Source of the DNA: Dipteris shenzhenensis
Lineage: Eukaryota
Reading direction: 5' to 3' (one strand)
Assembly: GCA_047967505.1 (NCBI GenBank)
Contig: CM106538.1
Length of the DNA: 64,000 bases
Part shown: positions 6,634-53,900 of the stretch, in pieces
How the letters are laid out: each line of letters opens with the position of its first letter
How positions within the stretch are numbered: position 1 is the first letter of the stretch
Made by a program: the position numbers and the translations under genes
The notes under the pieces: model-generated
Database searches by the model: none
Told to the model about the DNA's origin: nothing
The model's input: only the letters and a program-made list of their open reading frames with translations

Positions 6634-6676
<43 letters not shown>
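5745..6676 (+). mobile_element. Putative ORF1-only non-autonomous LINE derivative with 3' hairpin and (TC)n tail
   Basis: Decayed ORF with a coiled-coil-like start and C-terminus RVKILRQTNKLKGTRIWISEELT...KEARKEGKWAVYQDG (stop 6455-6457), similar to the ORF1 end of the adjacent LINE. No ORF2 before the hairpin at 6600-6632. Confidence 0.6.
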
Positions 6677-6678
<2 letters not shown>

Positions 6679-7018
6679 CGAGCATGGGATCGAGCATGCA
6701 TGGCACACGGGACGGGATCCCACACGTCCACAGCCACTTATCATCCGATTCACGGACACTCAGGCTCAACTTGCAGCACTCAGGCAGCACGCTACACTAC
6801 GGGACCACCCTACCATTTTCATGGATGAGGATCTCACACCTATGCAAGTAGAGGAGCGGCGCACCCTACTTCAGCAGCGAGATGCAGCCCATCAAGAGGG
6901 GAAGTGGGCTGTCGTCCGAGATGGCCGCCTGCTAGTTGGCCCCCGCCGCCGAGCCCCACCAGGTACTCAAGACACGGTAGCAGGCTCCGCCCCCCAAATA
7001 GGGAGACATGGTCTATGA
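6677..7018 (+). pseudogene. LINE ORF1 C-terminal part (RRM/CTD type)
   Basis: IEHAWHTGRDPTRPQPLIIRF...IFMDEDLTPMQVEERR...EGKWAVVRDGRLLV matches the RPRPIIVKF...IFINEDLT ORF1 pattern. Confidence 0.75.
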
Positions 7019-14290: not shown

Positions 14291-17200
14291 TCATCCTAAT
14301 CCCATGATGTGGCGGCAATGTGCAAACCGCTCTGTAGGCAAGCTCTTAGTGAGCAAATCTGCAGGATTATCATCAGTATGCACTTTCACAAGCTCAAGTC
14401 GCTTGTCTTCCAGTACCTCCCTGATGAAATGATATTTCACCTCTATGTGCTTGGTCTTCTGATGAAAGACCGGATTCTTTGCCAACATGATAGCACTCTG
14501 ACTATCACAATGCAAAACTGGCATATCTCCTGTAATGCCCAAATCTCCCACCAGCCGAGTAAGCCATATTGCTTCCTTGCAAGCCTCAGTGGCTGCAACA
14601 TATTCAGCTTCTGTGGTTGACAGTGCAACGCATTTCTGCAACCGAGACACCCATGATATAGCACCTCCTGCAAATGTAAAAATATAACCGGTAGTAGACT
14701 TCCGGTTATCTGCATTCCCTGCATAGTCTGAATCTGTAAAACCATGCACCAATGCATCCTGCCTACCATAGCATATGCACAAGTCTTTGGTACCCTTGAG
14801 ATACCTCAAGACACCTTTCACTGCTTCCCAGTGCCGCTTGCCTGGATTTGCCATATACCTGCTGATGACTCCCACCGCAAAAGCAATATCCGGACGAGTG
14901 GCAACCATGGCATACATCAAAGATCCAACTGCAGATGCATACGGAACCTTGGCCATTTCAGCCTTATCATCATCTGATCTGGGGCTGTCCTTACTGCTGT
15001 GGAGGCAACGGGGTACTAATGGACTTCCCCCCTTCCATTTTAAAGCGCTGCAGTACTTTGTCAATGTACTCTTTCTGTGACAGAAACAAAAGTCCCTTGG
15101 ACCTGTCACGAGTAATACGCATGCCAAGAATATGATTTGCATCACCCAAGTCTTTCATGTCAAAAGACTTATGCAGTTGTTTCTTCAAAGCATTAATCTC
15201 ATGCTGAGATTTACTGGCAATAAGCATGTCATCCACATACAGAATGAGTAGCATCAAACTGCCATCCTTTGCCCGTTTGGTGTATAAGCAATGATCGGTC
15301 TCACACCGATGATACCCTTGGGACTGCATGAAGGCATCAAACTTCTTGTACCATTCTCTTGGTGCCTGCTTGAGTCCATACAAGCTCCTTTTGAGCTTAC
15401 ACACAAGCTGCTCTTTCCCTTTAACAGCATATCCCTCTGGCTGACTCATATAGATCTCATCATGGAGATCTCCGTGAAGAAAAGCTGTCTTCACATCCAT
15501 CTGACATAAATCCATGTCATCATGAGCAACAAGAGCTAATACTGCTCTCAAAGTAGTCATCTTGACTACAGGGGAAAAGATCTCATCAAAGTCAATGCCC
15601 TTCTCCTGCTTAAATCCCTTGGCAACCAATCTGGCCTTATACCGAGGTAAAGCATTTGAATCCACTTTGACTTTGTAAACCCACTTGCATGGCAAAACCT
15701 TTCTGCCTGCAGGTAACTGCACCAAGTCCCATGTATCATTCTGAAGTAGGGAGTCCATTTCAGATTGCATGGCTTTCTCCCACTTCTTTTTCTCTGTTCT
15801 TCCCATAGCTTCCTTGAAGCTGGAAGGCTCACCACAATCAGTCAGCATGATAAAATCAGCCACATTATTGGCTCCTGGAACAAACCTGGCAGGAGGCCGT
15901 TGTGCACGGGAGCTCCTCCTAACAAAATGTTCCGCATTAGGCTGCTGTCCAGCCTGTTGTTCATGCATGACGGGTGGCTGTACCACCATATCTGGCTGTT
16001 CTACAGCCCCATCTGTTGGCACATCCAGTGGTGCATCATTGGCAAAATTATCTGGCTGATTTTCAGCCTGTATACCCTCTTGAACAGGGTGCTCTGCAGC
16101 AGCCTGCTGCTGCATATAAATGGGCATTCTTTGCTGTCCAACATCATCATAAATAACCCTCCTGTATTCCACAGGTTGCACAGGTTCCTTGTGTACACTA
16201 TCCTCTTTAAAGATGACATCATTGCTGCGTATAATCTTCCGCTTAACGGGATCCCATAACCTGTACCCCATTTCACCTTCGTCACCATAACCCATAAAGA
16301 TGCATCTGATAGACTTTGGATCCAGTTTGGTGCGTAGTTCTTTGCGTACATGAGCAAAGCACTCGCAGCCAAATACACGTAAGTGCTTGTATGAGGGTGG
16401 CTTGCCAGACCACACCTCCTCTGGCACTTTCAACTCCAAAGCCTTGTTTGGCGACCTGTTAATAATGTGAACTGCTGTTTGCACGGCTTCTGCCCAAAAG
16501 CCATGGGGTAATGCAGCATAAGACAACATACATCGAACCTTTTTCTGAATAGTTCGATTCATCCGCTCACTTGCACCATTTTGAGATGCATTATGAGGGG
16601 CTGTGAGTTCCTGTTTGATGCCCTTAGCTTGGCAAAACTGCACAAAAGCATGTGACACATACTCACCCCCATTATCGGATCTGAGGCATTTCAGCCTACG
16701 ACCTGTCCGATTCTCTACCTGAGCGACAAATTTCTTGAAAGCATCTAAGGCATCTCCCTTATGCTTCAAGAAATAGACCCACACCTTACGTGTGGCATCA
16801 TCAATGAAAGTAATAAAATATTTTGCACCCCCTAGTGATAACTGTGGCATCTCACACAAATCAGTGTGCACTAGATCAAGTGGTGCTCTATTCTGGGGAG
16901 ATCTCCTCTTATGAGGAGTCACAGAATGCTTGCCAAAAATACAATGATCACAAGTAGGCAAATCTGAAAAAGAGAGAGGCGGCAGATAACCCAAACGTGA
17001 CAGTTCTTGCATTCCTTTAACAGACATGTGTCCCAACCGGCTATGCCACAATGAAACCTTTGGCAGCTCGGTTATGGCAACAACATGATTACCCACACTG
17101 GAAACATTAAGAGGGTACAAGGTATCACTCTTAAAACCCTCAGCCACTACAGTCTGGCCATCAGTAATCACCCATTTGGAATCCCCAAATGTGGTGTGGT

Positions 17201-18389
17201 AACCACTGTCATCCAATAAGCCAGTGCTAATCAGATTTTTCTTGATTTGCGGCACATGGCGGACACCATCAAGCATGAATGTGCGTCCATCAGGAAATAC
17301 TATCTGTATACTGCCAATCCCTGCAATCTGACATGCATAGTTGTTCCCAAGATGAACAACTCCATGAGTACCTGTGTAGGAAGTAAACCACTCCCTATGA
17401 GGAGTAACATGAAAAGAGGCACCTGAATCCAAGAGCCAGGTGTGCATGTCATGGCCATCAATAACCAAAGCATGTGCTATTACAGCAGAAGAACATAAAA
17501 CATCATGTATGTCACTGTCACTGTCCTCTGCTGCAACATTCACTGCATCCAAGTCATCTGCCTTGGCCTTGCCTTTGCCTTTGCTTGCATTTCCTGCATC
17601 CTTTGTTTCAGCCTTCTTGGCTTTCTGATCCCGTATGAACTTGAAGCACTTCGACTTCACATGTCCCTTCTTGCCACAATAAAAGCATTCAATGTCCTTT
17701 TTGCCACGGGACTGACTGCGGGATTTGGACTTACTAGCAGATCTCCCCTTCTGCTGAGTCCTGCCTCTGTCCTGTACCTGCAAAGCATTTGAAGACTTGC
17801 TGCCTGCATTATTCTTCCTGCTCATCTCCTCCATAAGGAGAGAGCTCTCTACATCAGCATAAATAAGAGTGGCATTCGAGTTTGACAAGGTGGTCTTGAA
17901 AGTGTCCCAACTCTCGGGGAGGGTACACAGCAAGAAAGTAGCCTTGAACTCCTCATCAAGGTTCAACCCCTGTGCAATCAGCTGTGTAAAGATAGCATTG
18001 AACTCACTCAAGTGTGAGGTCATAGCTGTACCTTCTTTCATGCGAAGATCAACCAGCTTCTTCAGCCAATAAACCTTACTGGCTGAGCTCTTTTGGGCAT
18101 ATAATTCTTCTAGTCTTTGCCATAGACCATAAGAGGTCTTTTCAGCCTGTACATTGAACACAAGAGTGTCTGAAATAGTGAGCATGATAGCTGCCCTCGC
18201 GGACAAGTCAAGCTCTTCCCAGTCATCAGCTGACATATCAGATGGCTTGACACCCTTCACCCTTATGGGCTTAGCAATCTTCTTTAACAGAAGTACATTC
18301 AAGCATTGTTCTGCCCATAATGGATAGTTGTGTGCTCCTTCCAGTTTCTTTATGTTCAGAATAGAAGCATCACTTCCCCCTGATGCCAT
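14291..18389 (-). pseudogene. Copia gag-pol polyprotein with a single frameshift near 15000
   Basis: MASGG start; CFYCGKKGHVKSKC knuckle; WLLDSGAS protease; WHSRLGH and DDE integrase; YKARLVAKG, QMDVKTAFLHG, LYVDDML RT; RNase H TDSDY...ADLLTK lies in the shifted frame. Confidence 0.95.
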
Positions 18390-20260
18390 ATCAGATGAGG
18401 AAAGTACCTGACACCCTGGAAGTAAAAAGACTGAATAAAAGTTCTGATTTCTCAGAAAAAAAAAAACTGCTCTATTCAAGAGCCAGAAGCACTCTCAATG
18501 GTGCTGTTTTTACTGTCAGTAAAATCTGCAGCAAAACAGTAAATGACCCTGCAAAAACTGTACCTTCTGACACACTGTTCTGAGCTCAAAGAGGCATAAA
18601 AGAACAGTAATTTCAGACTGCTGCTGCTCAACAAGTGCTTAACAGTGCATAATCATCTGACAAAATCACCAACACTGCTGTAAACACTGCTGTACTGACT
18701 GTACTGATCACTTCTCCCACCTCAGATGAGGTCTTGCACTGAGTTAAATTGCAGAAACCACTTGACTAACATCCAAAAAAAAATAAATGATCCTTCAGCC
18801 TGTTACAAAGCCTGCAACAGAAAATGGGATAAATCCCAAGCAATCACCCTTATACCAAGGGGAGAAAATGCATCTGAAGATCTCTGTCAGTATCCCAAGT
18901 GCTGTCAAACAAAGTTTGGGCAAAAGCCCCTTGATCTGACAACTGAATCAAGTGGAGAACACCTCAACACTGAGGTAGCATGCAACATGAAAATCTCTCT
19001 GACAAAAAATATCCACCAGTGTAATGCATATACTGCCCTGTGTAGAAATGACATACACAGATCCCAACGTACAAACACTCAATGAGGAACCTTTTGAGCA
19101 CTGTCAACGATGGACAGTTAGGGACCGAGTAAACTCGATGCGCCCTGGCCAAGCGTGGCTCAACTGAAGTTCTCTGAGTGTTGCACAAGAAATGTGACCT
19201 GCAAGTAAATGTCACCTCGACACTGCGGAAATCAAGACAAAAGTGTGCTCTCTGGCACCACACTGCCTCAAGGCATACAATGCATCACCTTCCGTGCAAA
19301 AGCCCTATGATCTGCTCACCTGTAAACTGAGATTCAACCCAGTAAAAGCATATGTCCTCTTGCAAAATCAAGGCATTACATTCCCAGAACAGAATAACTG
19401 TGCAATCAACCACGCACTGTGGTTCCTTCACCTCAAGCACGAGATGAATGAAAGTACTGGCTGTACTTTCAAGATAAGACAGTTTTTGTGAACTGAAAAA
19501 TGACCTTGAATCAAGAGAAATGAAGAGCAGAATGCTCTTTCTCCTCTCTTTCTTTCCCAAAAAAAAAAGACTGGACCTGCTGTACTTTAGTACCTGTGTA
19601 CCTGTGCAGGGTACAGATGTACCTGCTGTACCTGTGCAGGGTACAAATCCAAGGAGAAATGTACTCCTCTGACGCAGATCCAGAAAAACGATGTCTTCCT
19701 GTCGAAAGTCCCTGACACAGCTCCCGAAAAACCGAAAAAAGTACCTCCCTGCTGCACAAAAAACGAAAAAAACAGCTCCCTGTAGGTATGGCAGTACGGA
19801 CGTACGGCCACCGTACAACTGTACGGCCGTACAGATGTACGGCGCACGAAAGAGGCCTGCACCTGCGCGATGCGCCGCCTTGCTGCCCGCAGATCTGCTG
19901 CTGCCCTGTGTACGAAGTGCGCCCGCAGATCTGCTGCTGCCCTGTGTACGAAGTGCGCCGCCCTGCGCGCGAAATGCACCTGCAGGCAGCTGTATAGCTG
20001 CTTGATGCAGCTCCGCCCTGCAGCTATGTAGCTGCTGTACAGCCCGCGATCTGCGACCACGCCTGTGACCACGCCCGTGACCACGCCCGCTACCACACTT
20101 TGCACTGCTGCGCCGCCTGCGCACTGTGCTGCTACGCTGTCGCAGTCCGTCCGTACGACTGTACGGACGAAGTACGGTCGTACGGTACGGTCCGTACGTC
20201 CGTACGGAAAAGGTTAGGCTAGGGAGAGGAAGCTAGGGAGAGGAGGCAAGGGAAAAGGAG

Positions 20261-36998: not shown

Positions 36999-37312
36999 GT
37001 GACTAAGAAAGCCCTTCACCGCCCATCTCCCGTTAGACTCAAGCAGCGCTCTGTTTCAAGAGAGTATCGCGTCAGTGAAATGAGATTTGTACAACACTAG
37101 ATTAGAGAACCCGCCTACTAAACATAAGATATGCTATCCTCCAATAGGGAGTCTCCTTGGAACGGTTGCCATAGGGAAGCTCTAAACATTAGGTGAACAC
37201 AGTTGCGCTATTGTTGAGAGTTAGGTTAACAGATGTGGATTTTCATGTATCATGGTTTCAATGATTGACGCAGTAAGAATATGCAACACTCATAACTCAT
37301 CGAGGAAACTAC

Positions 37313-37436
37313 CTGTGACAGATCGTTCGGCTCCTTCATCTTTCGAGAGAGCCCTCATCTGGTACTGCCGGGTAAAGTAGGGGTATCGAGTAATTGCTCG
37401 GGGGAGACCCACGATTGGAATCTTTTGGCCCAGCAT
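37313..37436 (-). CDS. HDHD3: Putative first coding exon of the HDHD3-like gene (transit-peptide-like)
   Basis: MLGQKIPIVGLPRAITRYPYFTRQYQMRALSKDEGAERSVT+G|GTAGTT; the phase-1 donor joins the phase-1 acceptor at 29767 in frame; Arg-rich, acid-free N-terminus. Confidence 0.65.
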
Positions 37437-37670
37437 TGCAAATGCTGGTGTGGTGCAGGACAACCTTCCGCATATGGTCAGAGAGTACGTACATACGTAC
37501 ATGTGTATCTGTGATGTATCTCTGTGTGCATGTATGTATGTATTCTCACTCAAAAAAAAATGCATGTATGTATGTATGTATGTATATGTGTGTGTATATG
37601 TGTGTATGTATGTATGTATATGTGTGTATATGTATGTTTGTATGTATGTATATGTGTGTGTAGGTATGTA

Positions 37671-37861
37671 TCTCCTTCTTCTATGTTATGCTTCTTCGGG
37701 ATGCCGCTAAGGGAATCCTTTTATGATTGCCTATATTCACAGTAAGATTATACTATCTGCTTGTTCCACATTGAAATTTTCGGATGATCTTGTAATTTCT
37801 GTTTTTCACTTTGGAGACAATCTTTTGTAATATAAAGACACATAGATTTCACTAAAAAAAA
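37671..37861 (+). mobile_element. 5'-truncated L1 3' end
   Basis: Homologous to 51735-51916 (TTTTATGATTGCCT...AGATTA(T/C)ACT); ends GATTTCACT-A8. Confidence 0.8.
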
Positions 37862-37863
37862 GT

Positions 37864-37895
<32 letters not shown>

Positions 37896-38564
37896 CTTTA
37901 TGGCAGTACCTTACCCATATTCATGCCGATTCCAAGACTTGACTTCAATATCGTCTTGAAGATTGCTCACTCGTCCGTTAATGTTGGCTCACATCACGGT
38001 TGCTAAGCTTTATAAGGTCTTCATGCCTTCACCTTGGATTTCAAATAGAGTTGTATGCATCGTGATGCTAGATGGTGGTGACATTAGACATCCAAATTTT
38101 CGCTTCGTCAACAAGTTTTCTTGTGGCGGGTGATGCTTGGTATCATTCCATTTGGTCAACTAGTGGCTCGCAGACATACTGCTCCTCCTATTTGTCACAG
38201 AGGTCAGGCTCCCCACAAATCGTTGGCTCATCTTTTTTGGCAATGCCCTTACACTCGCGACTTTCTTTATTTCTGCAGCAACACCTAAGGGCTCGCTTTC
38301 CTACAACTTCCTTGGGAAAGTTTTTTGGCTGTTTGAAATCCACCCAAAGCAACAAGGCTTTGATCTCTTTTTCACGTGGGTTCATTATTTGGGACTTTGG
38401 AGTCTCTGGAAAGACCATAATCATAGAGTCTTTCGAGATCCCACTTACTCCGGGTGTCATTGAGGCAATCTTTCTTTGATTGTCTGTGTGCTCGTCTAAT
38501 AGATCATACTCGGGGATTGCTCATTGTAATATAAAGCCTAATGGATTTTACCCCCAAAAAAAAA
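37896..38564 (+). mobile_element. 5'-truncated L1 (ORF2 C-terminus plus 3' UTR)
   Basis: LWSLWKDHNHRVF (cf. LWKDKNHRVF near 51690); ends GGATTTTACCCCC-A9. Confidence 0.8.
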
Positions 38565-41500
38565 GAAGCCTGCATATCAATTTTTTTTAAAAAAAGTGTG
38601 TGTGTCTATACACACACACATATGTCTATGTGTGCACACCCACGTGTTTATGTATGTATATATGTATACTCTCTCTCTCTATATATATATATGTTTATTT
38701 ATTTATTGTTATTATTTTTTATTTTTTTATTTTCCCAAAAAAGGGGGGTTTTATATTATGGCAAAGAAAACCGATATCAAATATACAATTGTTCCTTTCA
38801 TATATCTGAGACCATCACTGCATAGAGAAGCTAATTTCTCTCCTTTGGGACACACATGTCAGATCGAAAGATGTCGTTAGTTTGCGTGGAGTGGATCATC
38901 TCTACATGTCTTGGCGATACGATAAGCACATGTTCACACATATATATATATACGTATACATATACATATATTTGTATATGTATATGTATTGAATATGTAT
39001 ATGTGTATACATATACATATACATATATATATGTATATACATATACATATATATACATATATACATATACATATACATATATATACATATACATATATGT
39101 ATATATATGTATATACATATACATGTACATATATATGTATATATATGTACATGTACATATATATGTATATATATGTACATGTATATGTATGTGTACATGT
39201 ATATAGAGAGGGAGGGGGGGGGAACACACACACACATATTCTACATACATACATAGATGGTAAGTGTGTGTGTGTGTGTGCACGTGATCGCACGTGTGTG
39301 TGTGTGTGAGAGAGATTCTCACCAAAAAAAAAAAGTGTGTGTGTGTGTGTGTGAGAGAAGAAGAAGAAGAAGAATGTATTACCGTCCTCTGGGGGCCGAG
39401 AAACCGACCCATGGGACCCATGAAAATCACAATACAAGTGTCTCCCTTCTTTTATGGAAGGGGTAGGAAAACAACTATTCTGAAATACATTGAGTAATAC
39501 AACATTCCCGATATTGAAGAATCTTGGCAATAAAATTGCCCAGAGAGAGACAGTGAGAGAGAGTTTTCTAAGAAAGAGAGGAGCAGTAGGTCAACGCTTC
39601 CACCTTCCTCCTGTTGTGCTGCTGGCCAAGGCAACCCTTTGGGGACACTTAGTTGTTCGTACACCCCTCATTTGAGCTGTTGAGAGGTCATGACTGCTGC
39701 CTAACATCATCCTTCCAATTTATCACTATTCCGCTTCACTTTCCAGGGGAATTTAGGGCCATGGGCAAGTCACCTTCTATCTATGCACATTTTGTCTCTA
39801 TTTGCTCTCTCTTCTCACACGTTGTTTGCAAGGTTTTCATTTTGCCTTTTCTTGTCTGCTGTAGTGACCTGCCTCTAGCTCTATTTTGCATGTTCAGATT
39901 TTGCCTTTGGGTGGTGGGTGTTCATGCCTGTCTACAGTTCGTTTCGGTCTTCCTTTACTTGAGCTTTGCACTCTTACCTCTCGTTTCCTCTCTCTGTCTA
40001 ATCTCGTTTTTTAGGGGGTTTGTTGTTTTCTCCCTTTTTAAAACCCTTTTATTCTCAGTCATTAACTCGATTTTCTATTGCCTCCTTCTATGGCTTCTTT
40101 GCTGGGGGTTTTCGCTTGATTTCCATTGTACATAGCCATAAAATCAGTTCTCCCTCACCATCTATACATACTTTAGCTTTGTAGAGGACTTTTGTTCTGC
40201 TCAAATTTTGCTTTCTGCTTTGCCTACCTTGGCAAGTTATGAATTTTAAAAGACCTTCAACATAGAAATATAGGCTCAAAACAAGAAGCGAAAGCAAGCT
40301 TTGTGTCTACAACTCTCAAGAGGAGTAGTTGTTTTTTTATGTTATGCACAAAAGTTTTGAAGGCACAAGAAAGGATTAGAAAGAGGCTCCTCCCTCTATT
40401 GGAATTATGGTGGAGGTTGATGAAATTGTAGACTCGATATGGTAATATGCCAAGCATGCTATCATCATCTTCTTCCTAGGTCGTATGCCTATTGTAGCCA
40501 ATGTGGACAATCAGTTGACAAAAGCACTTTGGGAGGTTGTTTTATTCGTAAGGTGCATTATGCTAAAGTTATCATGACGGATGAGTAGCATAAACAAATG
40601 CTCTTAAGGCATTCTCGACTCTTTTATGGGCAGCAAATGGTTCATGTTTTGCCTTGGTCACCTAGTTGGGGTTACCATACATTGATTAGAAATCATTGCC
40701 TGGTTTGGGTGGAGGTGGTGGATTTTCCCCAATGCTTGCCTTCACTTTTTCCAAAAATTGCCATATCATTAGGAAAGGTGGTATGTCCACCTCACCCAAA
40801 TGGAAATTCTAATAGGTTTGACATTCTTGGGACACAAATAAGCCCAATCCAAAATCTTACTCTATCACAATTAATAATGTGGCTATGGGAAGTGCCTACT
40901 ATAGGCTGAAATGGGGTCTTTTTACAAGGGCATGCTTTGAGCACAAGAAGTTTGGACATATGGCTTCACCGTGTCTCTTGGTTTTGCATAAAATGCCCCC
41001 ACATGCCATGCCTTCTCCAATATAGAGTAAGGGCCTTTTGGAATAAAAAATAAAGCCAATAAACCTGTAAATGCAACACCAAATAAGAGGAATGCTCAAG
41101 TCTTGAACAATGGGAATGCCTCTCGCTTAGTGCCTTCTATGTCTCAGCCTAAAGAGTGGTTCTTCTAATGGTCATATTCTTGCAAAAAACTCAGGAATTG
41201 GGATTACTTGGGCCGCTGTAACAACCAGCTATAGTTCTTTCCAGAAGAAGAAGTGGCTGGTTTGCTATCCTCCCATCAGGCTGTTGTGACACCTCAAGGA
41301 CAACAAGGCCTAGATCTTGAGGTGGACATGCAGACTTAATATATTTACTTTATCCACTATATATAGCTATATAAAACATCTGTAAACAAATCAAGTGCTT
41401 GACCTTCAATTGTAGGGTTTGTGTGACACTCAGAAATGGAAGCTTGTATGGGCATATGTTAATGACTTGCATCCTGATATGGTGGCTCTATAAGAGCACA

Positions 41501-44500
41501 ATCAGCATATGTATGGATGCAGGACAGGCCATTATGTTGGTTATGATATCTTCTCTGCAGGAGAACATTCTTTTTTAGGTGTTTCTTTTCTTGTCAAGCA
41601 TACTCCTCACCAAATTGTGGCGACTATAAATGATAAAGAAGGCACATGGATCATCATTCAGTGTCTCATCTAGGGTGAAATACTTGAATTTGCATCTATT
41701 TATGCTCCTCAATCTTCTCATCGAAGAGCTTTAATTTGGGAGGATATGAAGTAATATCCTTGGAGGCAGCATATTTTTCTTTGTGGGGACTTTAATAATG
41801 CACCACTTCAAGGGAATAATACCTCGAGTAATACTCACATGTTGGCTTTGGAACGTCACCATTGGTCATGCTTGATCCCTCAACTTGGTCTTGTAGATCT
41901 TTGGACAAAGTTAAAACCCATGCTTTTAGGATATACCTTTCAGCATAATCCTCACTCTGCATATTGGGCCAAGTTGGACCATTGGTACATAATAAATGCA
42001 CAGCAGTATAATGCTCTTACTTGTCAAATGTGGGTAGATTATGCGTTCCCTCATTTGGATCATGCTCCATTATGGTTGAGGTTTTCTTTTCATGAGACAC
42101 CACATGATAGGATGCCAGATAAAAGTCCTCTTATTGTCAATAATAGCTATTTGGAGCATGATGAATATAAGCAAATGGTTAGTTATGCCATTGCACCCCT
42201 TCGGGGAATAGTGCGAGATTGATCTTGGTTATGCTTGGAATGCCTTCGCTTCTGACATGCAGTCTGTTATCCGTGATTATGGGAAGCATAATTTGAATGA
42301 CTTGAGAAAACAGGTTGTAGATGCTAAAGTTAACTATCAAAAGTTGTCAAAATCAGGGATTTGACTCAACCTAAGCATGTCAAGGATTTGACTCAGCCAT
42401 GTGAAGGATCCCTTGACATGGTTGCTTATGTCATGCTAAGCATTTATTATAGAGCAATGACCACGAAAATTGCCAAATGGGAAACCAAGGCCATGCAGAA
42501 AGCTCTTTTGGATAAAGCTTGTTCTTCTAAGCAATTGTTTAAAAGTTTGTATTATAAAAATCACGCTCAAAATGTTTGTTAGGTTTTGACATTGACTTCC
42601 TCATGGGCACAACTTGCCCAAGCATGTGTTGGTCATTTTGCTCGATAGTTTGGAAGTTTGGTGTCCTCTTCACAGGAGGTTTTGTTAGCAAGACAGAAGT
42701 TAGTACAACATGTTTCTCCTATTATTGCTCTTGACCAGGCTCTACTGCTTGAGACACCTTTTATAGAAAGGGAGCTTTTTGATGCTTTGAAGTCACATGG
42801 TAAATGGAGGTCCCAAGGTTGGGATGGTCTTACAGTGGAGTTCTTTTTGGCTTACTAGGATGCCATTAAGCAAGTTTTATTGCAAATGGTTAATAGTGCC
42901 AGGCCAAATTAGCAAATGCTAGATTCCTGGAAGAAAGTGTTGATTCTTTGTGAATCATTTGCTAATTGGAGGCCTATTACACTCATGCCAGTTAGCTATA
43001 CGATGATTGCCAAAATGGCGGTTGATAGAATAAAAGGATTCATGCATGATGGTCTACATCATACCTAATATAGCTTTATTCCTTGCAGTAGACACATCAC
43101 TAATAATATTGCAAATGCCTATGTTGGGATGGAAAATGCAAAGTATACCCAACAAGATGTACTCTTGTTGCAATTGGGCATTGCCAAAGCTTTTGATAAT
43201 GAGCAGTGGGATTTCATCTTGTAGACGATGCAATCTTTCGGGTTTAGGCATTGAATCAACATGTTATCCTACTAGCTCTATAGTGATAGTAAAGCTACAG
43301 TATTTTATCAGGAGATATATCTGATCAGTGGACTTTATATCCTTCAGTGAGACATGGATTCTCTCTTAGTCCTTTGCTTTATGCAATAGTTGATCATTTG
43401 ATACTTTGCTATATTGATCATCTTGTGGCCACAGATGTCCTGCATGGTCTATAGATACACAAAAGAAAGCCCATGATTGCGCAAGCTTATGCTACTGATT
43501 CATTCTTCATTCCCATGAACACACAAACTAGTCTTTCGCAACTCATGAAGGCTTTATCCTTGTAGGGAATAGCTATTGGCTTGTAGTTAAACTTTCAAAA
43601 GCCCAAGCTTCTACCTTTGCATGCTAAGGATTGGCATAGCTCTTTGTGGCTAGGGGAAATTGTTTTTCCCAACCAACTTGTTCGTCATCTTGGCTATCCT
43701 TTGGGATGGACCATCTCTAATCATCAAAAAGTAGATTGGGTACTTGTAAAGCTCAAGAAGAAACTAGAATATTGAAAATTAGCCACTTGGTCTCTTCATG
43801 TTTGACTCTGAATTGTACAATCAATTTTGGTAGCGTACATTTGGTTTTTCTTACCTTTGATGATGTTTGATAAAAAAGACATCTCTTCTTTCATGTCCAC
43901 TCTTATGGAGACTTTTTGGTGCTCAAAGCATGACTGTAAGAGTATCAAATTACTTTCTATAAAGCATTTGTGTTTCCCAAAGATGCACGATGGCTTGAAC
44001 ATATTGAATATTCATATTTTGGCACACAAGGGGAAATTGATGCTGCAATTTTTGCAAGGTGATCAACCTTAGGTTGCTACGATGTCTCATTTACTTCTGC
44101 AGCTGACTAGTCCTGCTTTTGGGCACTGGCATCCTACTCCATGGAACTTCATTTTGGGTTATATTGATGGTACGATTAAAGGTCGTCCTTTTGTTCTAAA
44201 ATGTTCTTGGCCTAGAAGGAGTTTCTCTCTCATCTCAAATGGCATAGTTGTGACTCTCTAGATGGAAATTCCTTGCACATGGAGAACTTGCACTAGCCAA
44301 AGGCATTTGATAGACCCCTTGCTTTGCAAAAACCCACACTCATATTTTATTTTATCCAAAGGAATTACACTTGTTGGTGGTAACGTACTTCATGATGATG
44401 GTACTCTATTGCCTTTTCCTTTGGTGGCCAGACAATATGGATTGGGGATGCATTATCAACCCCTTTGGTACTATCTTTCTAAGATATGCTTTATTCCTTT

Positions 44501-44891
44501 TTTTTGGTACCCAGGTTGGAGCTTATGTATCCCTTATTGATTGGTCCTTCGTCAGGGTTCTTCTACCCTAACTTGCATTAATTCACCCAAAATGTTTTTT
44601 AATTTTAAAAAACCCCCAAAACACAAATTTATTGATTTAAAATGAATCCAATGAAATTTCCTATTTTATTCATACAAATAACTTTTATTTGCACGAGTAG
44701 AGTTATTCGTATGGATGAAAGCTTATTCGTACAAATAATCTTTATATTTGTTAAAAATGATAAGTTTTTTGGTCTTTTTTTTTCGAGCGATACAGCTACC
44801 TCCTTTCCATGTGCCATCCTGACATCCTACCTACTAGTACTCTTGCGCATCACATTCAGGTAATTAAAAAAAAAAATTTGTTTATCCTCAG

Positions 44892-45520
44892 GTGGCACCC
44901 ATCTCTCTCCGAGAGTTGTGGTTGCAATTTGAGTTTTTTATTTAATGGAATTTAGTTTTTTTCCCTTGAATCTGGCACTCATCTGTCTTTGAGAGATGTG
45001 TGTTTCAGTTTTAGTTGTCTATTTAATATATATGCATGTTTAGATAGGTTTAATCTTAGTTTGGCACTCATCTCTCTTTGAGAGTTGTGTGTTGTAGTAG
45101 TCTGAGTTGTATGTTTGTATTTATAATATGTTTGCATGTTTAGATTGGGTTTACTCTTAGTCCGGCATTCATCTCTCTCTTGAGAGTTATGTGATGCACT
45201 CTGAGGTGTATGTTCCTACTACATAATATGTTTGCATGTTTAGACAGGTTTGCAACTTAGTTTGGCACTCATCTCTCTAATGAGAGTTGTGAGATGTAGT
45301 CTGAGCCTTATGTTTAGATATTGTTTTTACCTCAGTCTGTAACTGATCTCTCTAAGAGAGTTGTGTAATGCACTCTCAGTTTTGTGTTTTGGGTTGTTTT
45401 CAGTTCAAGCTAGCACTCAGCTCTCTATTGAGAGTTGTATGATGTAGCTTGCATCTGTACAAATGCTTAGTTTAGCACTTAACTCTCTCTTGAAAGTTGT
45501 ATGATGTAGCCTAAGTTTAG
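44892..45520. repeat. Tandem array, 8 units of 60-100 bp with a conserved hairpin core
   Basis: Core T(G/A)GCACTCATCTCTCT..GAGAGTTGT near 44893, 44973, 45062, 45163, 45263, 45338, 45411 and 45473. Confidence 0.9.
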
Positions 45521-45761
45521 GGTTATTTGCATGTGTTTATCCTAACAATCATAGAAGCGTGATGCAATTTGACATGATATATAGACATTTGCACAAACTT
45601 CTAGTGTAGTATTTGAATCCCTTAGTAGCTGTGCATTGCAGTACTAGTTTATTGTTTGTTGATTGTGTTGGTATACAGGCATTGAATCTGATTTTGAATT
45701 TTGTGTTGTATTTTGCACGATCCTAATGAAATAAAGTGTTATATATATTTCAAGTTCTATC

Positions 45762-46596
45762 ATGAGTGTAGAGGAAGGCATCACACACATGAATGAAGAG
45801 CCCCCCAAGACATGCCAAACGTGCTCATGGGTTTTATGCCTCAAGAGGAAGATTTGGATGAGCAACTAAATCATGCACAGGCATAAGCGATCCTCAATAG
45901 AGAGAGCTTCTTGGAAAGGAATCTCTTGGACAGTTCATGGAACACATTGTTTCTTTGATTCAAAAATGGATGCAATAGGTGCCCATAAGCAAAGCTTGTG
46001 GACCTGAGACACCAAAACCTTGCTTATATTCTACTACATCGCTTTATTGAGGTAGAAGAGAACATGCCCAACAATCATTAGATCCAACATATTGCACCAA
46101 CGTGTTGATTGGATAGATAAACATCATCTATTAGGAATGAGAAAGGGACAACTAGCTGAGCGAAAGAGGGCAAGATTTGAGAACAGAGAGGTAGTGTCAT
46201 AGAGACCTCATGTGCTAACTCCACAGGCACACAGTGATCTGATTGATTTGGCCATAACTGGCCTATCTCTCCATCAACATGGCATCACCTTTGAAGATTT
46301 GCAGGCTCATTACATACCAGGTTAAAGAGATAGAGGCCCTACAAGCAAACATCGAGAGATTGGAAGCTGAGCTCACTACATACAGAGTAGATTTTGGAGA
46401 TATAGACACAAACGAGGCATTTGAATCATTCAATGTTGCTTCATTGATTAACTTAAAGAGTCAAGATGCATCACCTAGCATCCAAGGAACTTTAGATAGC
46501 CAAGATGGAATGCCAAGCACCTTGCAAAGCATGTTCTTTGAGAAACATTGTATTGAAATCTTCAACCATTGTATTAAATTTTTGGTTGTAATGTAA
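45762..46596 (+). pseudogene. Decayed accessory ORF of unknown function inside the hAT element
   Basis: Protein-like frames HHLLGMRKGQLAERKRARFENRE and the heptad-like VKEIEALQANIERLEAELTTYR, within AT-rich non-coding flanks. Confidence 0.5.
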
Positions 46597-46728
46597 ATAT
46601 AGTCTTTCAAATATAGTAGATATCAATGTAAATGTAGTAAATATCATTGTATTTACTTTTTGGTTGCAATATAAATATCATGTTGAATATAGTCTTTCAA
46701 ATAGATGTAATGTGACATTTACTATTTT

Positions 46729-47154
46729 CATGGCATCTTTGAAATCTCAAACTCTCTATGGGAACATGAAAATGCAAAATTATATTTTAGTTTCAAATGC
46801 ATATACTTTGAGTTTTAAATTGTATACTATCTCTACCTGTATGTCTCTTGATCATGCATGATCCAATGAGCAATTATAAATCTCCAACTCATGTAAAATG
46901 GCATGACATAGCCATAGTTAATTAAAATTTGGCATCAACTTGCATGGCATCTTTGAAATCTCAAACTCTCTACAGGAACATGAAAATGCAACATTATATT
47001 TTAGTTTCAAATGTGTATACTTTGAGTTTTAAATTCATATACTATCTCTACCTGTATGTCTCTTGATCATGCATGATCTAATGAGCAATTATAACCTCTA
47101 GCTCGTGTAAAATGGCATGACATAGCCATAGTTAATTAAAATTTGGCATCAACT
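46729..47154. repeat. Two-copy 212-bp tandem duplication
   Basis: CATGGCATCTTTGAAATCTCAAACTCTCTA...TTTGGCATCAACT at 46729-46940 and 46943-47154. Confidence 0.95.
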
Positions 47155-47400
47155 AAGTGAAATAGTACATAGTACACTTGCAAATTTGAGATAACAAAGG
47201 AATTGCAATTCAAGGTACATGGAGTGACAAGATGGATAAGAGCATATGCGCTATTAGTCTCACTGAATATATTCGCACCAACTCCTCATATGCAACAGAA
47301 TTCGATACAAACATTATACTCTTCAGTCAATTGTCATATTCGTATGCATGGTAATGCAAGATATGTACAGAGTTAGGATGGATATGAGCATATGCACTCT

Positions 47401-49592
47401 TTACTTAACATATTCTTGTATCCATTTGCATGCATCAAAACATGAGTGTGAGTATATTCTCATACCCATCACCTCGCATGCGCTGAAATTCTCAAATCCA
47501 TCCCTTTGCATGCATGTAGGAATCACATTATAAATTGCAGTTAGCATATGTATGATATTATCAGTCTCTTCCATGTCACAATTGTCATTGAATAGCTCAA
47601 ACTCATCCTCTTCCTCACTGAAGGTGCCCTCAACAGCAACTTCTGTAGTTGATTGCTCACTGATTCTCAAAGCATTCAATTCACTTTTTGCCCTGGCTGC
47701 AATATTCAACCCTTTCAATAGCCTCGAGTTTCCAAAATAATAAACCAAGTCATTAGATCTTGATGTTTTTCCTTGATTGCATCTCTTTGAATGGATGAAA
47801 TTGTATGCACTTCAGTTTCACTCACATGCAGTAGATGATGTAGCAATAGAGAACACACCTGTGGCAACATGCTGCAACTCTAATATCTCTACACCACATA
47901 CCTTCCACCAAGTAGGTGTAGCAGTGGTCTTGATAGCATCAAGGTGCCAAGGATCTCCAAATGAACCTTCATGGTTCATGTATTTTACTCTTTGCTGGTA
48001 GCTAATCTACCTTCTTCTCCCAAGAGCAATGTTCTACAAACATCTCAAAAGTTATTTATGACTTCTAGATTTTGAGATCGGACATGCATCTGATATTGTG
48101 GATGTAGTCCAAATGCAACTCCATGCAAAGGGCTGTACATCTGCTTCCATCTCTTATCAGCCAATTGTATGAGCTATTACTTCTCCTTGGCTGAGAAGCA
48201 CATGGAATCTTTAACCAACCATCCCCATAACAAAGGAATCTGCATCAACTATCCTTAACAAAACCCCAAATGGCTCTACACCTTGTTTTGTTCTTTCAAC
48301 GTTTCTCCAAACCTGACTATACAAGGTGTCCATTTTTGTTGCCAGGTGGTTCATCCATCGTATGTCTACTGCAACAGTCTCAAGTAAAGCCTACAAGCAC
48401 AAGAAAAGATGTGGCAAATCTAGTCTGACAGAATTGCTATAGCTATTTCATTGAGTGATCTCTAAATATACCATGCAAGTACTGATGTTGTTTTATGAAA
48501 TTAACTAGCATGTTAGCATCTTGTAGCATTGGCTGTACAAATGACAATATTCCAATATATTTCAACAAAAAATTGAGAGTATGAGCACCACATGGCACCC
48601 ATGTCATCGTGGGATATTTTTTCATGATCATCTCACCTACAGTCTTATAATTTGCCATGTTGCTTATTACTAATGCAATAACATTATCGCTACCACTAGT
48701 CTTAGTGATTGCTCTTTCATACACTTTATAAATGTATGGCAATTTTTTTTCTTTTAGAGAAGTATCAATACTCTCTAAAAACATCGTTTCCTTTGTGGTA
48801 ATACACATTACATTTATTAAGGGCTTGGCTTGCTTGTCGTCCACCCATCAAAAGCAACAATACCTCCATATGTTGGAATAAAATCTAGAATCACTTTTTT
48901 AATGCACTTTGCTACAGTTTCTTTTTACTTTGTCGAGATGGAACGCTATCATTTTATCATAATCTGGCAAGACAAATCCTGGTCTTGTGCATGACTTTAA
49001 TGCACTACAAAACGTCTTGTCTCTTATGACTTTGAATGCAATGACATTCTTTATGAACACTGCCATCCATATCAAATGCTCTTTAAGAGCATGTTGCCTT
49101 TGGGAACCATCCTCCATGGATGTTTGTCATGGCTTTTTCCTCTTTTTACCCTAACTCATATCCAAGGCATCATGCTGCACATGTGATCCATGGATGTTTG
49201 TTATGGTTTTTTTCTCTTTTTACTGTGACTCATATTCAGGGCATCATGTTGCATCCTCTGATGCATCTCCCATATTAGAAGGCTCTCCCACTTCCTCATT
49301 TTCATCAACCTTACTGCTCATCACCGCCCGCAAAAACACTTTTGGCACTTCTTATTAAAGTATGATCAGTTGCTCCCTTTATCTTTTCTAGATATGACTT
49401 ACATAAGGGAAATACATAGGATAGAGGACATGTACAAGCTTCAACATATGTGCCAATCCCTAAGAGATGTTGCTTGATGCAAGTAGAGCTTCTAGTAAAC
49501 TTATGCCCACAAGATTTACACTGTAAGTACGAGACTCAGGCATGCACTTTTTATATTTTTGTACAGTATGACTAGATTTTACCATGCACCAT
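47401..49592 (-). pseudogene. hAT transposase pseudogene
   Basis: BED finger CKSC...IKQHL...C; DGW...PLINVM; WVPCGAHTLN; TRFAT; WWKVCG...SSTACE dimerisation domain; many stops. Confidence 0.9.
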
Positions 49593-49849
49593 ACTTAAGA
49601 GTAACAAACCAAAACATACGTTTCAAGGATATTAATAGAAATTATTATGCTTTAATTCATTAACTATTCATAAAGCATACATATTTAAATGCACATGTAA
49701 AAAAGTAATTGGATAAAATATTGTACAACCAATAAAAAAAATAAAAGTATTATTTCAAGAGAGTATAAGAATGTAAATAATAACATATACATTCAAAGTA
49801 TAAGAATATTAGAAAAACACTCAAAGTATATTAAATTCTTTAACATACA

Positions 49850-50850
49850 TCTATTCATTCACATATTGTTGAAAAGATAGGGAATATTCATTCAAAAGTA
49901 AGTGTAAGAATGTTATTACTTCAAATATCTCTATTCATTCACATACTTTTGAAAGAATAGAGAATACTCATTCATCCACATTCAATTGAAAGAATATGTA
50001 TTTATTCTTTCAATTGCAAGTGTCAGATGAGGGCGGGGGGGGGGGAGTTAATTGGGTTTGGGGAAAATGTGTGGCTAGCCACTAGCTATGTTTTTGTAGG
50101 ATAAAAAACTCGCAAGGAAAAAACTTGCAGAGTTCCAAGCCCCGACTGCAAATAGTGCCACATTCATTCACGTATAATTCAAAGAATAAATATATTCTTG
50201 CAAGAGTAAGTGTAAGAATGTAACATTGGCAAATACAAAAATGGAAATTCTGAAGCATTCATTTACATACTATTGGAAGAATAAAAAATATTCATGCAAA
50301 ATTATGTGTAAGAATGTTTACTTAACGTTCATTCACATAAAATTGAAAGAACACATATGTCTTCTTTCAATAATTAAGAGTGCATATTTCAAATAGTTAT
50401 GCATTCATTCACATACAATTACTAGAAGAATACAAAATCTTCATTCAAAAGTAAGTATAAGAATGCACTAAGAACTCAAATGAGATTCTAAGAAGTCTAT
50501 CAAATTAAAAAAATTCAAATGGGGAGGTCCTAAGAACTCTATCAAGTACTATTCAATAATTAGCCTATCTGAGAGATCTTAAGAACTCAAATGAGATCCT
50601 AAGAACTCTACCAATATACAAAAATAAACTATTCACACTGGAGATATTTGAATCTCTAATGAGATTCATAGAACTCACACAAACTTGACACACAAACAAG
50701 AACAAAAATCACATCACACAAGAGATCTAAGAGTCTATAGAGACACTTAGAACTCACACAGACAATAAACAAATTCCATCACATTTCACAAAAGAGATCT
50801 AAGAGTCTATAGAGACCCTTAGAACTCACACAAATGATAAACTGATTCCA
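49850..50850. repeat. Degenerate tandem arrays upstream of the transposase
   Basis: ATTCATTCACATA...GAAAGAAT units (49850-50460), then AAGAACTC / AGAGATCTAAGAGTCTATAGAGAC units (50470-50850). Confidence 0.8.
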
Positions 50851-51916
50851 TTTTAGTTTAGACCTTCAAGATTTCTTGCTAAAGAAACCTTATGAGCCTT
50901 CCTTGTTTTCCCCCCTTTTCAATCTCTTCTCCTTGGCTAGAGAACCAAGCGTGAGATAAACACATGAGAGTCGCTTGTTAGCTTATAATAACCCAAACTA
51001 TTTGTATGGATAAGTTATTTGTATGAATAAAGTTTATCTGTATGAATACTTATTCATATGAGAATAAAATTTATTTGTATGAATATAAATGGATGACATG
51101 GCAAATCACCATCAAAATGTGATGTAGTTACAATTTCTAGCCTAATTTTTCATCCTTATGTATTATTTGGTCCGAATTCTTGAATTTTTTGAATCAGAAA
51201 TTTGATTTTTTATACTTATCTTCTACCCACCCATTATGCCTGGCTAATATCTTAGGTCGATTTACATAGGGTTTTGATGCTGCCTCCTTGGATATTGCAT
51301 CATGCAAATCAGCTTTATTTTTTAAGTTGTAATGCCAAATGGTTGAGTAAAAGATTGTAGCAGCTCTAGTCATGCAAACTTTCACTTCATCATCAATAGG
51401 CTTTTCTATAGTGAGTGATGTTTGGTGTTATTACTTTTGGCCAACTCTTAGCACATAAACATATTGCTCCTATTCTATGCCACATATGTTTGGCTCCAAG
51501 GGAGACCTTGCTCCAACTTTTTTGGAATTGTCCTATCACCTATGATTTCTTGCTATTTCTTCAGTAGCACTTCTAGGCTTGCTTTCCAATTTCTTCCTTT
51601 GGAAAGCTTATTTGGATCTTTGGCATTCACCCATGGTGAGCAGAGTTTGGTCTATTTTTCATGTGGGTTCTATATTAGGCACTCTAGACTCTATGGAAAG
51701 ACAAGAACCACAGAGTCTTTTGAGAGCGTACTTCTTCCATGTTCTAATATTTTTGGATGTTACTCAATCTTTTTATGATTGCCTGGCTGTTTGTTAGATA
51801 GATTACACTGTCTACTTGTCCTACAATAAAATTTTTTGATCTTGGATTTGTCTGTCGATCCCCACTTTAGGGAAGCCTCTTTTTAATAGAAGATACATGG
51901 ATTTCACTAAAAAAAA

Positions 51917-51975
51917 GTGTGTTTGTGTGCATATAATACATATTACACACACACTTCTTTTTTTTGGGTGAGCAT

Positions 51976-52049
<74 letters not shown>

Positions 52050-52057
52050 TGTATGTG

Positions 52058-52121
<64 letters not shown>

Positions 52122-52232
52122 AGTATGTTACAATATGTATGTATGTATGTATTCATTTATATGTATACATACACAGACACATACATACATGTATACTTTT
52201 TTTCAAGGGGGTGAAATCCATGTATGTTTAAA

Positions 52233-52280
<48 letters not shown>
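51917..52280. repeat. (CA)n/(TG)n/(TATG)n microsatellite field with two minus-strand L1 tail stubs
   Basis: Stubs at 51954-51975 and 52197-52233. Confidence 0.9.
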
Positions 52281-52283
<3 letters not shown>

Positions 52284-52499
52284 ACTAATCCCTTCCTCCA
52301 TTAGGTTTTTGCCACTTGCTCATTAGAGCTCCCCTCAACAACTCCGCTTAATTTCCCTAATTTCTTTTTCCTCAAACTCCCTTATTCTCCCCTTAATTTC
52401 TCCCTAATTTCCCTTAAAAAAAAATAAAATTCCCTAATATTTACCTTCTTTTCTTTGTTATTTTTAATAATTTCTCCTATTACCTTTTTTCCTTAATCC

Positions 52500-53900
52500 C
52501 CCTTTATTTTTCGAGTTGTGTAGCAAAACTATTGTGCTCTTGGATGATAATATGAGGGATAAGGTGCAATTAAAAAAGTCGCCTGCAACTCTATCCAATG
52601 TGTTCCATACGGGCAACAAAATTAGTATAGGTGAGTCCAAGGAGGCAACTCTGCTAGCTAAGGGTGTGAACATAGAGGAAGTAGCCATGAACCTACTGAA
52701 TCAAGTGGCTTAATAGCTTAATGGGGGCTTGGGCAGAGATGGGTCCAGTAATCCACACTTGTTCCCGAGATAAGACAATGTGTGGTGTGGGATATGCATG
52801 GGCAACTACCCTACAAATGATTTCCCTTTCCTTTGGGCTAGGCCAATGCTCTACTATGCTCACTATGCTAGATGGAGAGACCCCAAGACTTCTCAATGTC
52901 GATTTCCCAATACTATGCCATCATCCATGTACCAATAGAGGCAACTGTTGTCCTTGCCTACACCACAAACTAGTACAACCAGGGCCAACTAGTTATACAT
53001 GGATCCTCTCAGCCAACCAAGGGCCACCTAGGGTTCAAAACCTACCACTACCACCACTTGTTCTAGGACCGCATCCCCCGCCACCACGGATTGCTCCCAT
53101 AAATCAGGTTATTATTGAATAACCATTGAGTGAGTGGGAGGATCTTGGCTATGCCATTCTGCAATCTAGTCCCTTGCCATATGAAAGTCCTATATATTAG
53201 GCCAGCCGGGTAAGCTATTACATCATGTAGGATGAACAATATATTTTGGTATATCGAACTACTTCCACGATGCTACAAGCTAGAGATATGAACACTGTGA
53301 ATTGCAGACCACCTATCCAATGTTACACTTGCCAAGGCCCACACAGTGCAAGTGAATGTCCTTATAAGGTAACTACCACTCAGCCTATAGCTTGTTATAA
53401 GTTCCAGGGACTCCACTTCCTTAAAGATTGTTCCTACAAGGATGATCAACCCTTGCTTGGAACATTTGCCATTAACCTGAATGCTCCATTGTGTTTAGTT
53501 TGTGGAGTATACAAGGATTGCCCCATGAGAAGAGCACCCAAAACAACCCCTGATCCTAAAATCAGCATTAATTTACTGTGAATATTGAGAGAGGCCAAGT
53601 TTTGTTAAATGTGATTACGAGGGCCCAAGCCAGGAGCCATGAGCAAGGAACTTTGAAAACAAGCCAAGAGGGAAAAAGCAGCCACATCTTAGTCCAAAGG
53701 TAAAGGCCGTGCGACTGCAATCAAAGTAGGGAAGGACTTTGATCAAGTTATCCTTCATAGTGGCTCAAATTGAAGAGACTGCTATGTCTCCACATCCACA
53801 TCTTTAGGACTCGCCCAGGTGACCTTGGATCCTATAGCACTATGGCCTAAGGAAAAGAATAGGGTAAGTGAGACATAGCCACATAGATGCGACTTAAGTA
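52500..53900 (+). pseudogene. Gypsy-like gag remnant with multiple zinc knuckles
   Basis: CYTCQGPHSASECP, CYKFQGLHFLKDC and LNVITRAQA. Confidence 0.55.

Follow-up and report, generated by a model that had tools for sequence, protein, structure and literature searches.

Repeated, strand-consistent insertion of L1-like elements into a compound TG/TATG microsatellite of Dipteris shenzhenensis

L1 elements of land plants are commonly held to recognise poly(A) and to lack target specificity. In animals, several long interspersed nuclear elements (LINEs) of the apurinic/apyrimidinic endonuclease (APE) type are specific for microsatellites, namely, Waldo (ACAY), Mino (AC), Kibi (TC), Koshi (TTC) and Dong (TAA), of which Waldo and Mino are insect LINEs of the R1 clade; the word 'plant' is absent from the available text of the review that describes them (Grandi and An, 2013; PMC3812793). 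In plants, we found a single case of repeat targeting, the L1-CS lineage of Cuscuta europaea, which targets the satellite CUS-TR24 at near-canonical L1 sites, 91% of its elements being associated with this repeat (Vondrak et al., 2021; PMC8091179). A comparative survey counted 233 families of flowering-plant L1, of which 224 have an (A)n terminus and none terminates in another repeat (Ohshima, 2012; PMC3472496). Our literature search, which did not extend to subscription journals and Repbase reports, turned up no plant L1 linked to TG/CA microsatellites. Here we describe a 64,000-nt stretch of Dipteris shenzhenensis (contig CM106538.1 of assembly GCA_047967505.1), hereafter the window, in which at least seven poly(A)-tailed insertions of L1 type lie in a single old compound TG/TATG microsatellite, all in one orientation relative to the TG strand.

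Seven poly(A)-ended insertions in one compound microsatellite

An earlier reading of the window from its letters alone (the sequence-only reading) had listed seven L1-like 3′ ends, with plus-strand copies in TG tracts and minus-strand copies in CA tracts. Direct reading of positions 37300–39600 and 51500–52600 recovered all seven poly(A) ends where they had been placed, numbered here c1 to c7 (Table 1). The insertions comprise one near-full-length copy, two copies truncated to 0.2–0.7 kb and four truncated to 8–30 nt, and the tail adjoins the TG strand in all seven, in agreement with the strands reported earlier (two-sided chance, 2 in 128). Strict TG/TATG tracts of at least 10 nt number 23 and occupy 448 of the 64000 bases of the window (0.7%), 20 of them being located inside two microsatellite clusters, cluster A (37.5–39.36 kb) and cluster B (51.92–52.28 kb). 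Because these clusters are the 5′ and the 3′ flank, respectively, of the long copy c5, the seven insertions share one ancestral compound microsatellite, and the supposition that the events come from at least two loci is not borne out.

The association between A-runs and TG-type repeats is largely confined to these copies. Among the 102 runs of at least six A residues on both strands of the window, eight have nine or more TG/GT steps in the following 24 nt; seven of the eight belong to c1–c7, and the eighth (10127, minus strand) faces no microsatellite. None of the 102 runs faces a CA-type microsatellite. A degenerate pattern for the terminus, derived from the consensus of the sequence-only reading and hence written post hoc, has seven matches in the window versus 0.26 expected; six of these are c1–c6, the seventh, at 19550, is an unrelated site, and c7 is missed. 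A weak look-alike, TTTTCCC followed by A6 at 38730–38742, is succeeded by G6 rather than by TG and was counted neither way.

Table 1. Coordinates of the seven copies, their target-site duplications and the nested DNA transposon (positions in the window)
Feature	Position	Strand	Description
c1	37544–37560	+	8-nt stub (..TCTCACTC) and A9
c1 duplication	5′ copy 37527–37543, 3′ copy 37561–37577	+	17/17 identical, flush on both sides, opens with non-periodic TGCA
c2	37671–37861	+	5′-truncated end of L1 3′ untranslated region (UTR), ~183 nt, and A8
c2 duplication, probable	37632–37661 / 37862–37891	+	25/30 identical, starts with landmark
c3	37898–38564	+	5′-truncated L1, ~660 nt: end of second open reading frame (ORF2) with zf-RVT, 3′ UTR, A9
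c3 duplication	5′ copy 37886–37897, 3′ copy 38596–38607	+	GTGTGTGTGTCT, 12/12 identical, ends with TCT, flush on both sides
c3 extra segment	38565–38595	+	24 non-TG bases and A7 (38589–38595), inside c3 duplication
c4	39315–39334	+	9-nt stub (ATTCTCACC) and A11
c4 duplication	5′ copy 39294–39313, 3′ copy 39335–39356	+	20/20 identical (39337–39356), GT run and AGAGA
c5, left part	39376–44478	+	ORF1 remnant, APE, putative reverse transcriptase (RT) region, post-RT region; 5′ end uncertain (39289–39376)
c5, right part	51256–51916	+	zf-RVT, 3′ UTR, A8
c5, 3′ flank	51917–51937	+	Probable 3′ copy of c5 duplication
c6	51955–51973	-	8-nt stub (GCTCACCC), A8 and GAA
c6 duplication	5′ copy 51974–51988, 3′ copy 51940–51954 (element orientation)	-	12/13 identical as aligned, 14/15 when read on; flush
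c7	52197–52233	-	~30 nt of L1 terminus, TTG and A7
Nested DNA transposon	44479–51255 (boundaries approximate)		~6.8 kb, splits c5; 9-bp inverted ends at 44479 and 51247–51255

The insertions are genuine, strand-consistent and independent events of the target-primed reverse transcription (TPRT) type into a pre-existing TG/TATG-type repeat. Four copies (c1, c3, c4 and c6) are bounded by target-site duplications that are flush with both the 5′ end of the element and the tail and that contain TG-type repeat together with non-periodic landmark bases. The 3′ copy of the c4 duplication is longer by two GT units, and the c6 duplication ends with ATAT, its 5′ copy running on into (CA)33. The duplications of c2, c5 and c7 are probable. 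The 5′ copy of the candidate for c2 ends 9 nt before the insert junction, and c7 has TG-type repeat on both flanks (in element orientation), with both candidate copies ending with GTGTC, and is ambiguous. For c5, two candidates are available: the 3′ flank is identical at 17 of 21 positions to 39268–39288, three of the four mismatches being transitions, and its first 13 nt match, at 12 of 13 positions, the GT run from 39335 onward, which is itself a copy of the run at 39294 made by the c4 duplication. Overall, the 5′ flank is of TG type at c1–c4, c6 and c7 and probably also at c5. When all runs of at least seven A residues in the window were considered, only four had their 12-nt 3′ flank copied, with at most one mismatch, within 8 kb upstream, and all four lie in the clusters, although the match at c6 is a chance match within the repeat and not the c6 duplication.

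The sequence-only reading had further proposed that TG repeats follow each tail within a few bases. This holds for the other copies but not for c3, in which 24 non-TG bases and an A7 run intervene after the A9 tail, so that the second run (38589–38595) and not the canonical one (38556–38564) adjoins TG. The extra segment of c3 may represent a 3′ transduction, which is the simplest reading, or a variant tail. Both c3 and c6 show an A-run followed by GAAG, which in c3 opens the 24-nt non-TG segment, and this shared feature may likewise reflect either 3′ transduction or a common variant tail. The possibility that the A9 of c3 is internal and that c3 is collinear with c5 via GAAGCCT is ruled out by the contiguous block of approximately 30 nt preceding this A9, which can be aligned to the genuine ends of c2 and c5.

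As for the common L1 terminus claimed for all seven ends, alignment upholds it for c2, c3 and c5, which have in common a terminal block of about 30 nt directly before the tail, and in part for c7, which carries the last part of this block and shares a 15-nt terminal motif with c5, whereas the likeness of c1, c4 and c6 is limited to 8–10 nt. In blastn comparisons, c2 is 73% identical to 51766–51918 and c3 is 70% identical to 51367–51733, both within c5. The three copies are true relatives and are L1 elements. Given that they differ by 27–30% and in the point of truncation, they originate from separate events with different sources. The end of ORF2 bearing the zf-RVT domain is present in the element, as indicated by a Pfam match in c3 (PF13966, 38088–38285; E = 1.8e-6, 28.9 bits versus a cut-off of 27.5) and by tblastn matches of c5 to the proteins P0002 and P0016; the Pfam match in c5 itself is weak (E = 0.019). 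The tails of A7–A11 and the variable duplications of 11–21 nt are as in L1-type LINEs.

No close relative of the lineage was found. An exhaustive protein search with the zinc-finger piece of c3 produced 16 proteins at E ≤ 1e-3, all unnamed fragments of 98–379 aa with 33–46% identity, and a word-index search of proteins for relatives of the L1 found none. The neighbours of P0016 in the protein-cluster Atlas are zf-RVT clusters, which are commonest in Mucoromycota and Cnidaria. Neither blastn nor tblastn detected a further copy of the lineage elsewhere in the window. A conserved 3′ stem-loop of the kind associated with stringent recognition is unsupported, the consensus fold of the three sequences c2, c3 and c5 reaching only -4.3 kcal/mol. 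A scan of metagenomes for the 15-nt terminal motif followed by an A-run yielded nine loci, all consistent with chance. Two of these loci (L001 and L006) represent one eukaryote-like sequence, in which an 18-nt terminal motif and A9 precede a GT-rich flank (601–627); a diverged tandem copy is found about 150 nt downstream (~740–770), and there is no L1 homology upstream.

A proposed target preference and competing explanations

The placement of the duplications suggests where the first nick falls. GT is the opening dinucleotide of six of the seven, counting c6 under one of its two readings, and every one of the four duplications in pure (TG)n opens with G. Taken together with the tail adjoining the TG strand throughout, this start implies that the CA strand was nicked first, directly after a C, and the primer accordingly ended with ..CAC-3′ on that strand. 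The base that precedes each 5′ copy of a duplication indicates that the nick was mostly C|A, and no T-rich primer is available for pairing with the A-tail. On balance, we lean towards the reading that an L1-like lineage of the zf-RVT type, which encodes an APE and carries a poly(A) tail, has a strand-specific preference for (TG)n and (TATG)n, and we infer that this preference is seated in the endonuclease or in the priming step and holds genome-wide. Under such a scheme, the first strand would be nicked on the CA strand, usually after C (5′-..CAC|A..), and the A-tailed RNA would be reverse transcribed from this nick; a second nick 11–21 nt (perhaps ~35 nt) away would then yield a copy flanked by a duplication of the TG strand that starts directly after the A-tail. 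The non-TG segment that precedes the final A7 of c3 bears on the same step, since it suggests that a read-through GU tail on the RNA was not needed for entry into TG, and it favours a choice of nick site over annealing between RNA and target.

The most serious competitor, which we nevertheless regard as unlikely, is a local hot spot used by ordinary L1 machinery, whereby the microsatellite attracts or tolerates insertions owing to non-B DNA, frequent nicks or neutrality. Under this explanation, the orientation would stem from the generic requirement of the L1 endonuclease for a pyrimidine|A step, which in pure (TG)n is offered by the CA strand alone, and nothing would be specific to the lineage. 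The confinement of the seven events to a single locus, the prevalence of C|A among the inferred nicks and the possible transduced flank of c3, which is not of TG type, are all in line with this possibility, and there is a precedent in that the occurrence of Drosophila Waldo-A and Waldo-B near CA repeats is most likely due to passive accumulation (Grandi and An, 2013; PMC3812793). However, passive accumulation does not explain the base-level placement: every copy junction is in TG-type repeat, although strict tracts make up such a small fraction of the window, and the remainder consists mostly of other, dead transposons, among which Pfam identifies three Copia regions, a further LINE and the nested DNA element. 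Although such sequences are presumably no less neutral than the microsatellite, none of them harbours a copy of this lineage. Furthermore, the ordinary preference for T-rich|A would encounter far more sites outside the tracts than within them. Duplications of 11–21 nt are a mark of endonuclease-dependent TPRT and not of capture at breaks, and those observed here point to the former.

A different explanation, that the TG repeats are part or an outgrowth of the 3′ tails of the elements and that the upstream repeats are tails of preceding copies, is largely refuted at this locus, and we give it very little credence. It draws on the head-to-tail arrangement of c1–c3, in which each 5′ flank is the preceding 3′ flank, as well as on the known ability of retroposon tails to seed microsatellites (Grandi and An, 2013; PMC3812793) and the existence of green-algal L1 families whose 3′ termini are (CA)n or (CATA)n (Ohshima, 2012; PMC3472496). 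Nevertheless, TG-type repeat immediately adjoins c1, c4, c6 and c7 on the 5′ side with no upstream tail, and the repeat on the sense strand is TG rather than CA. Nor does the arrangement match that of LINEs with a microsatellite 3′ tail, in which the repeat is part of the element, on the 3′ side only and upstream of the duplication: the copies here are tailed by poly(A), and their repeat starts with the duplication and recurs 5′ of the copies. Most directly, the repeat lies on both sides of the copies and, accompanied by landmark bases, inside flush duplications, so that it pre-existed each insertion and was the target, not something carried by the tail; TG repeats found only 3′ of copies, which the sequence-only reading had named as evidence for a tail, are not what the locus contains.

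It is also highly improbable that the stubs arose through local duplication, unequal crossing-over or inversion in an unstable repeat cluster instead of by independent insertion: the c1 and c4 stubs share nearly the same 9 nt, and rearrangement did occur, but c1, c3, c4 and c6 each have a distinct flush duplication of their own, and c2, c3 and c5 diverge in sequence and truncation point as described above. The rearrangement is apparent in cluster B, where the repeat switches between CA-type and TG-type strands near 52045 and ~52155 with no L1 stub at either point, so that the microsatellite locus was also rearranged or inverted internally.

Several points weigh against a preference of the lineage for TG-type repeats. 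All seven events fall in one ancestral locus, represented by the two flanks of c5, and three TG tracts outside the clusters (10, 14 and 16 nt) carry no copy. If the extra segment of c3 is a 3′ transduction, the parent copy did not reside in a TG repeat. Duplications inside microsatellites are easily over-read, and those of c2, c5 and c7 are ambiguous. The membership of c1, c4 and c6 in the L1 lineage, judged by a terminal motif of 8–10 nt, is suggestive, and the endonuclease of c5 is decayed rather than intact. Of the microsatellite-homing plant L1 proposed by the sequence-only reading, repeated entry into a pre-existing TG/TATG-type repeat in a single orientation is supported at this locus by the flush duplications, whereas homing of the lineage as a whole is plausible but unproven.

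The long copy and other elements in the window

The longest copy, c5, is a decayed L1 of approximately 5.8 kb that extends over ~39.3–44.5 kb and 51.26–51.92 kb. The copy ending at 51916 in the sequence-only reading is thus truly long, but it is not continuous, being interrupted by a nested transposon. Its APE is recognisable by the C-terminal half of the domain alone: the region 41755–42219 matches ExoIII (2jc5; E = 2.1e-5), two entries for the human L1 endonuclease (1vyb and 8sp5; E = 2.3e-3) and residues 138–268 of L1 ORF2p (E = 5e-3). A DUF4283 match at 40589–40906 is weak and below the cut-off (E = 8e-4; Pfam). No RT domain was detected in c5 by Pfam on the open pieces, with PDB sequences or by tblastn with the RT of the other LINE in the window; RT-like motifs, which we take by eye to be present at 42649–43772, lie in a region collinear between the APE and the post-RT part.

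Protein-level homology brackets the nested element. In tblastn searches, residues 1–197 of P0016 (379 aa, with zf-RVT at aa 247–322) align to 43893–44486 (E = 3e-23) and residues 239–368 to 51286–51675 (E = 6e-13), whereas residues 31–181 of P0002 align to 51256–51708 (E = 3e-24), so that L1 homology resumes at 51256. These matches on either side of the nested transposon overturn the view that there is no long copy at all, which had been suggested by the lack of a Pfam RT at 43–52 kb and the presence of DUF659. The latter domain, of hAT type, is encoded on the minus strand of the nested transposon (48446–48847; E = 1.9e-23; Pfam), which also contains inverted subterminal repeats of 15–19 nt and several internal tandem repeats. 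A 5′ end of c5 near 51087, beside the TATTTGTATGAATAA repeat, is ruled out, given that these sequences are subterminal repeats of the nested transposon.

A second, unrelated LINE family occupies 6131–10323 on the plus strand. Its 3′ motif, CATAGACCCGC(G/A)AGGTCTTCCGAGGAC, occurs twice (6605 and 10267; 0 expected), in both cases followed by TTATT(CT)n, and the copies are arranged head-to-tail with (CT)n between them. The short copy (6153–6636) is preceded by a (CT) run about 22 nt long, and the full copy (~6678–10298) encodes RVT_1 at 8160–9371 (E = 4.8e-16). This arrangement would be explained by a (CT)n tail or, alternatively, by targeting of TC repeats in the manner of Kibi. The Copia element at 14994–18494 on the minus strand has an uninterrupted frame for a polyprotein of 1167 aa with gag, integrase and RVT_2, and is possibly young; two more Copia regions are found at ~23.6 kb and 54–61 kb. 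The Atlas neighbours of the Copia polyprotein come from Oomycota and Streptophyta, and the transposon-related Pfam families of the window, namely, DUF4283 (weak), DUF4219, Retrotran_gag_2, gag_3 and zf-RVT, have a plant-like look. Across the whole window, the observed/expected ratio is 0.37 for CpG and 1.25–1.30 for TG and CA, and CAG/CTG is not depleted, a composition that indicates a heavily CpG-methylated genome. Scans of the window for Rfam families and tRNAs gave no matches.

Comparison with known systems

If the preference proposed above is real, it would mean that the L1 clade, too, can give rise to target specificity like that of Waldo and Mino; it would also account for compound, interrupted TG microsatellites and for null alleles at such markers, and would make an endonuclease whose target is a simple repeat available to biochemical work. 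More tentatively, we entertain a fuller scenario in which a zf-RVT L1, probably of a heavily methylated plant, evolved strand-specific homing to ACAY-type repeats, makes its nick in the CA strand behind a C and does without a T-rich primer for its A-tailed RNA; such an element would be convergent with Waldo and Mino and would be the first microsatellite-homing L1 outside animals.

Among plant elements, L1-CS is similar in that heterogeneous copies of an L1 lineage have repeatedly entered one tandem repeat through a target-site preference, but its target is a satellite monomer with TTCTA/TTTCAA sites near the canonical L1 site (Vondrak et al., 2021; PMC8091179), whereas here the nick is in a CA run without a T-tract. 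The green-algal L1 are likewise L1-clade elements physically tied to CA/CATA-type repeats (Ohshima, 2012; PMC3472496). In those families, however, the repeat is the element's own sense-strand 3′ tail, whereas the copies described here have a poly(A) tail, TG-type repeat of the sense strand on both sides and a duplicated target. In RTE-related retroposons, the start of the duplication correlates with the 3′ microsatellite (Nishiyama and Ohshima, 2018; PMC6007223); the idea shared with the present case is that of a cleavage or priming site tuned by short repeats, with the opening base of the duplication as its readout. These retroposons differ in that the signature is a T-stretch and the repeats are on the RNA, whereas in the present case the RNA ends in A residues and the repeat is in the target.

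Kibi and Koshi belong to the Tx1 group, which is kin to L1. These fish elements and Dong resemble the present lineage as microsatellite-specific LINEs of APE type and differ in their repeat targets and hosts, the comparison being one of descriptions and not of sequences.

The proposed preference resembles that of Waldo and Mino, APE-type LINEs that, like the element here, are found in microsatellites of AC/ACAY type. Read on the opposite strand, (TG)n and (TATG)n are ACAC and ACAT repeats, both covered by ACAY, so that the target class equals that of Waldo, and the copies at this locus show a fixed orientation (7/7) and have the repeat on both sides, as a target. The differences concern the clade, Waldo and Mino being R1 elements whereas the present one combines a zf-RVT C-terminus with the simple A-tails typical of L1, the host group, and the extent of the specificity, which is genome-wide in the insect elements and is seen here at a single locus. 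To our knowledge, the zf-RVT domain excludes membership in the R1 clade. Accordingly placed outside that clade by its zf-RVT domain rather than by a tree, the element may nonetheless work in the manner of Waldo and Mino.

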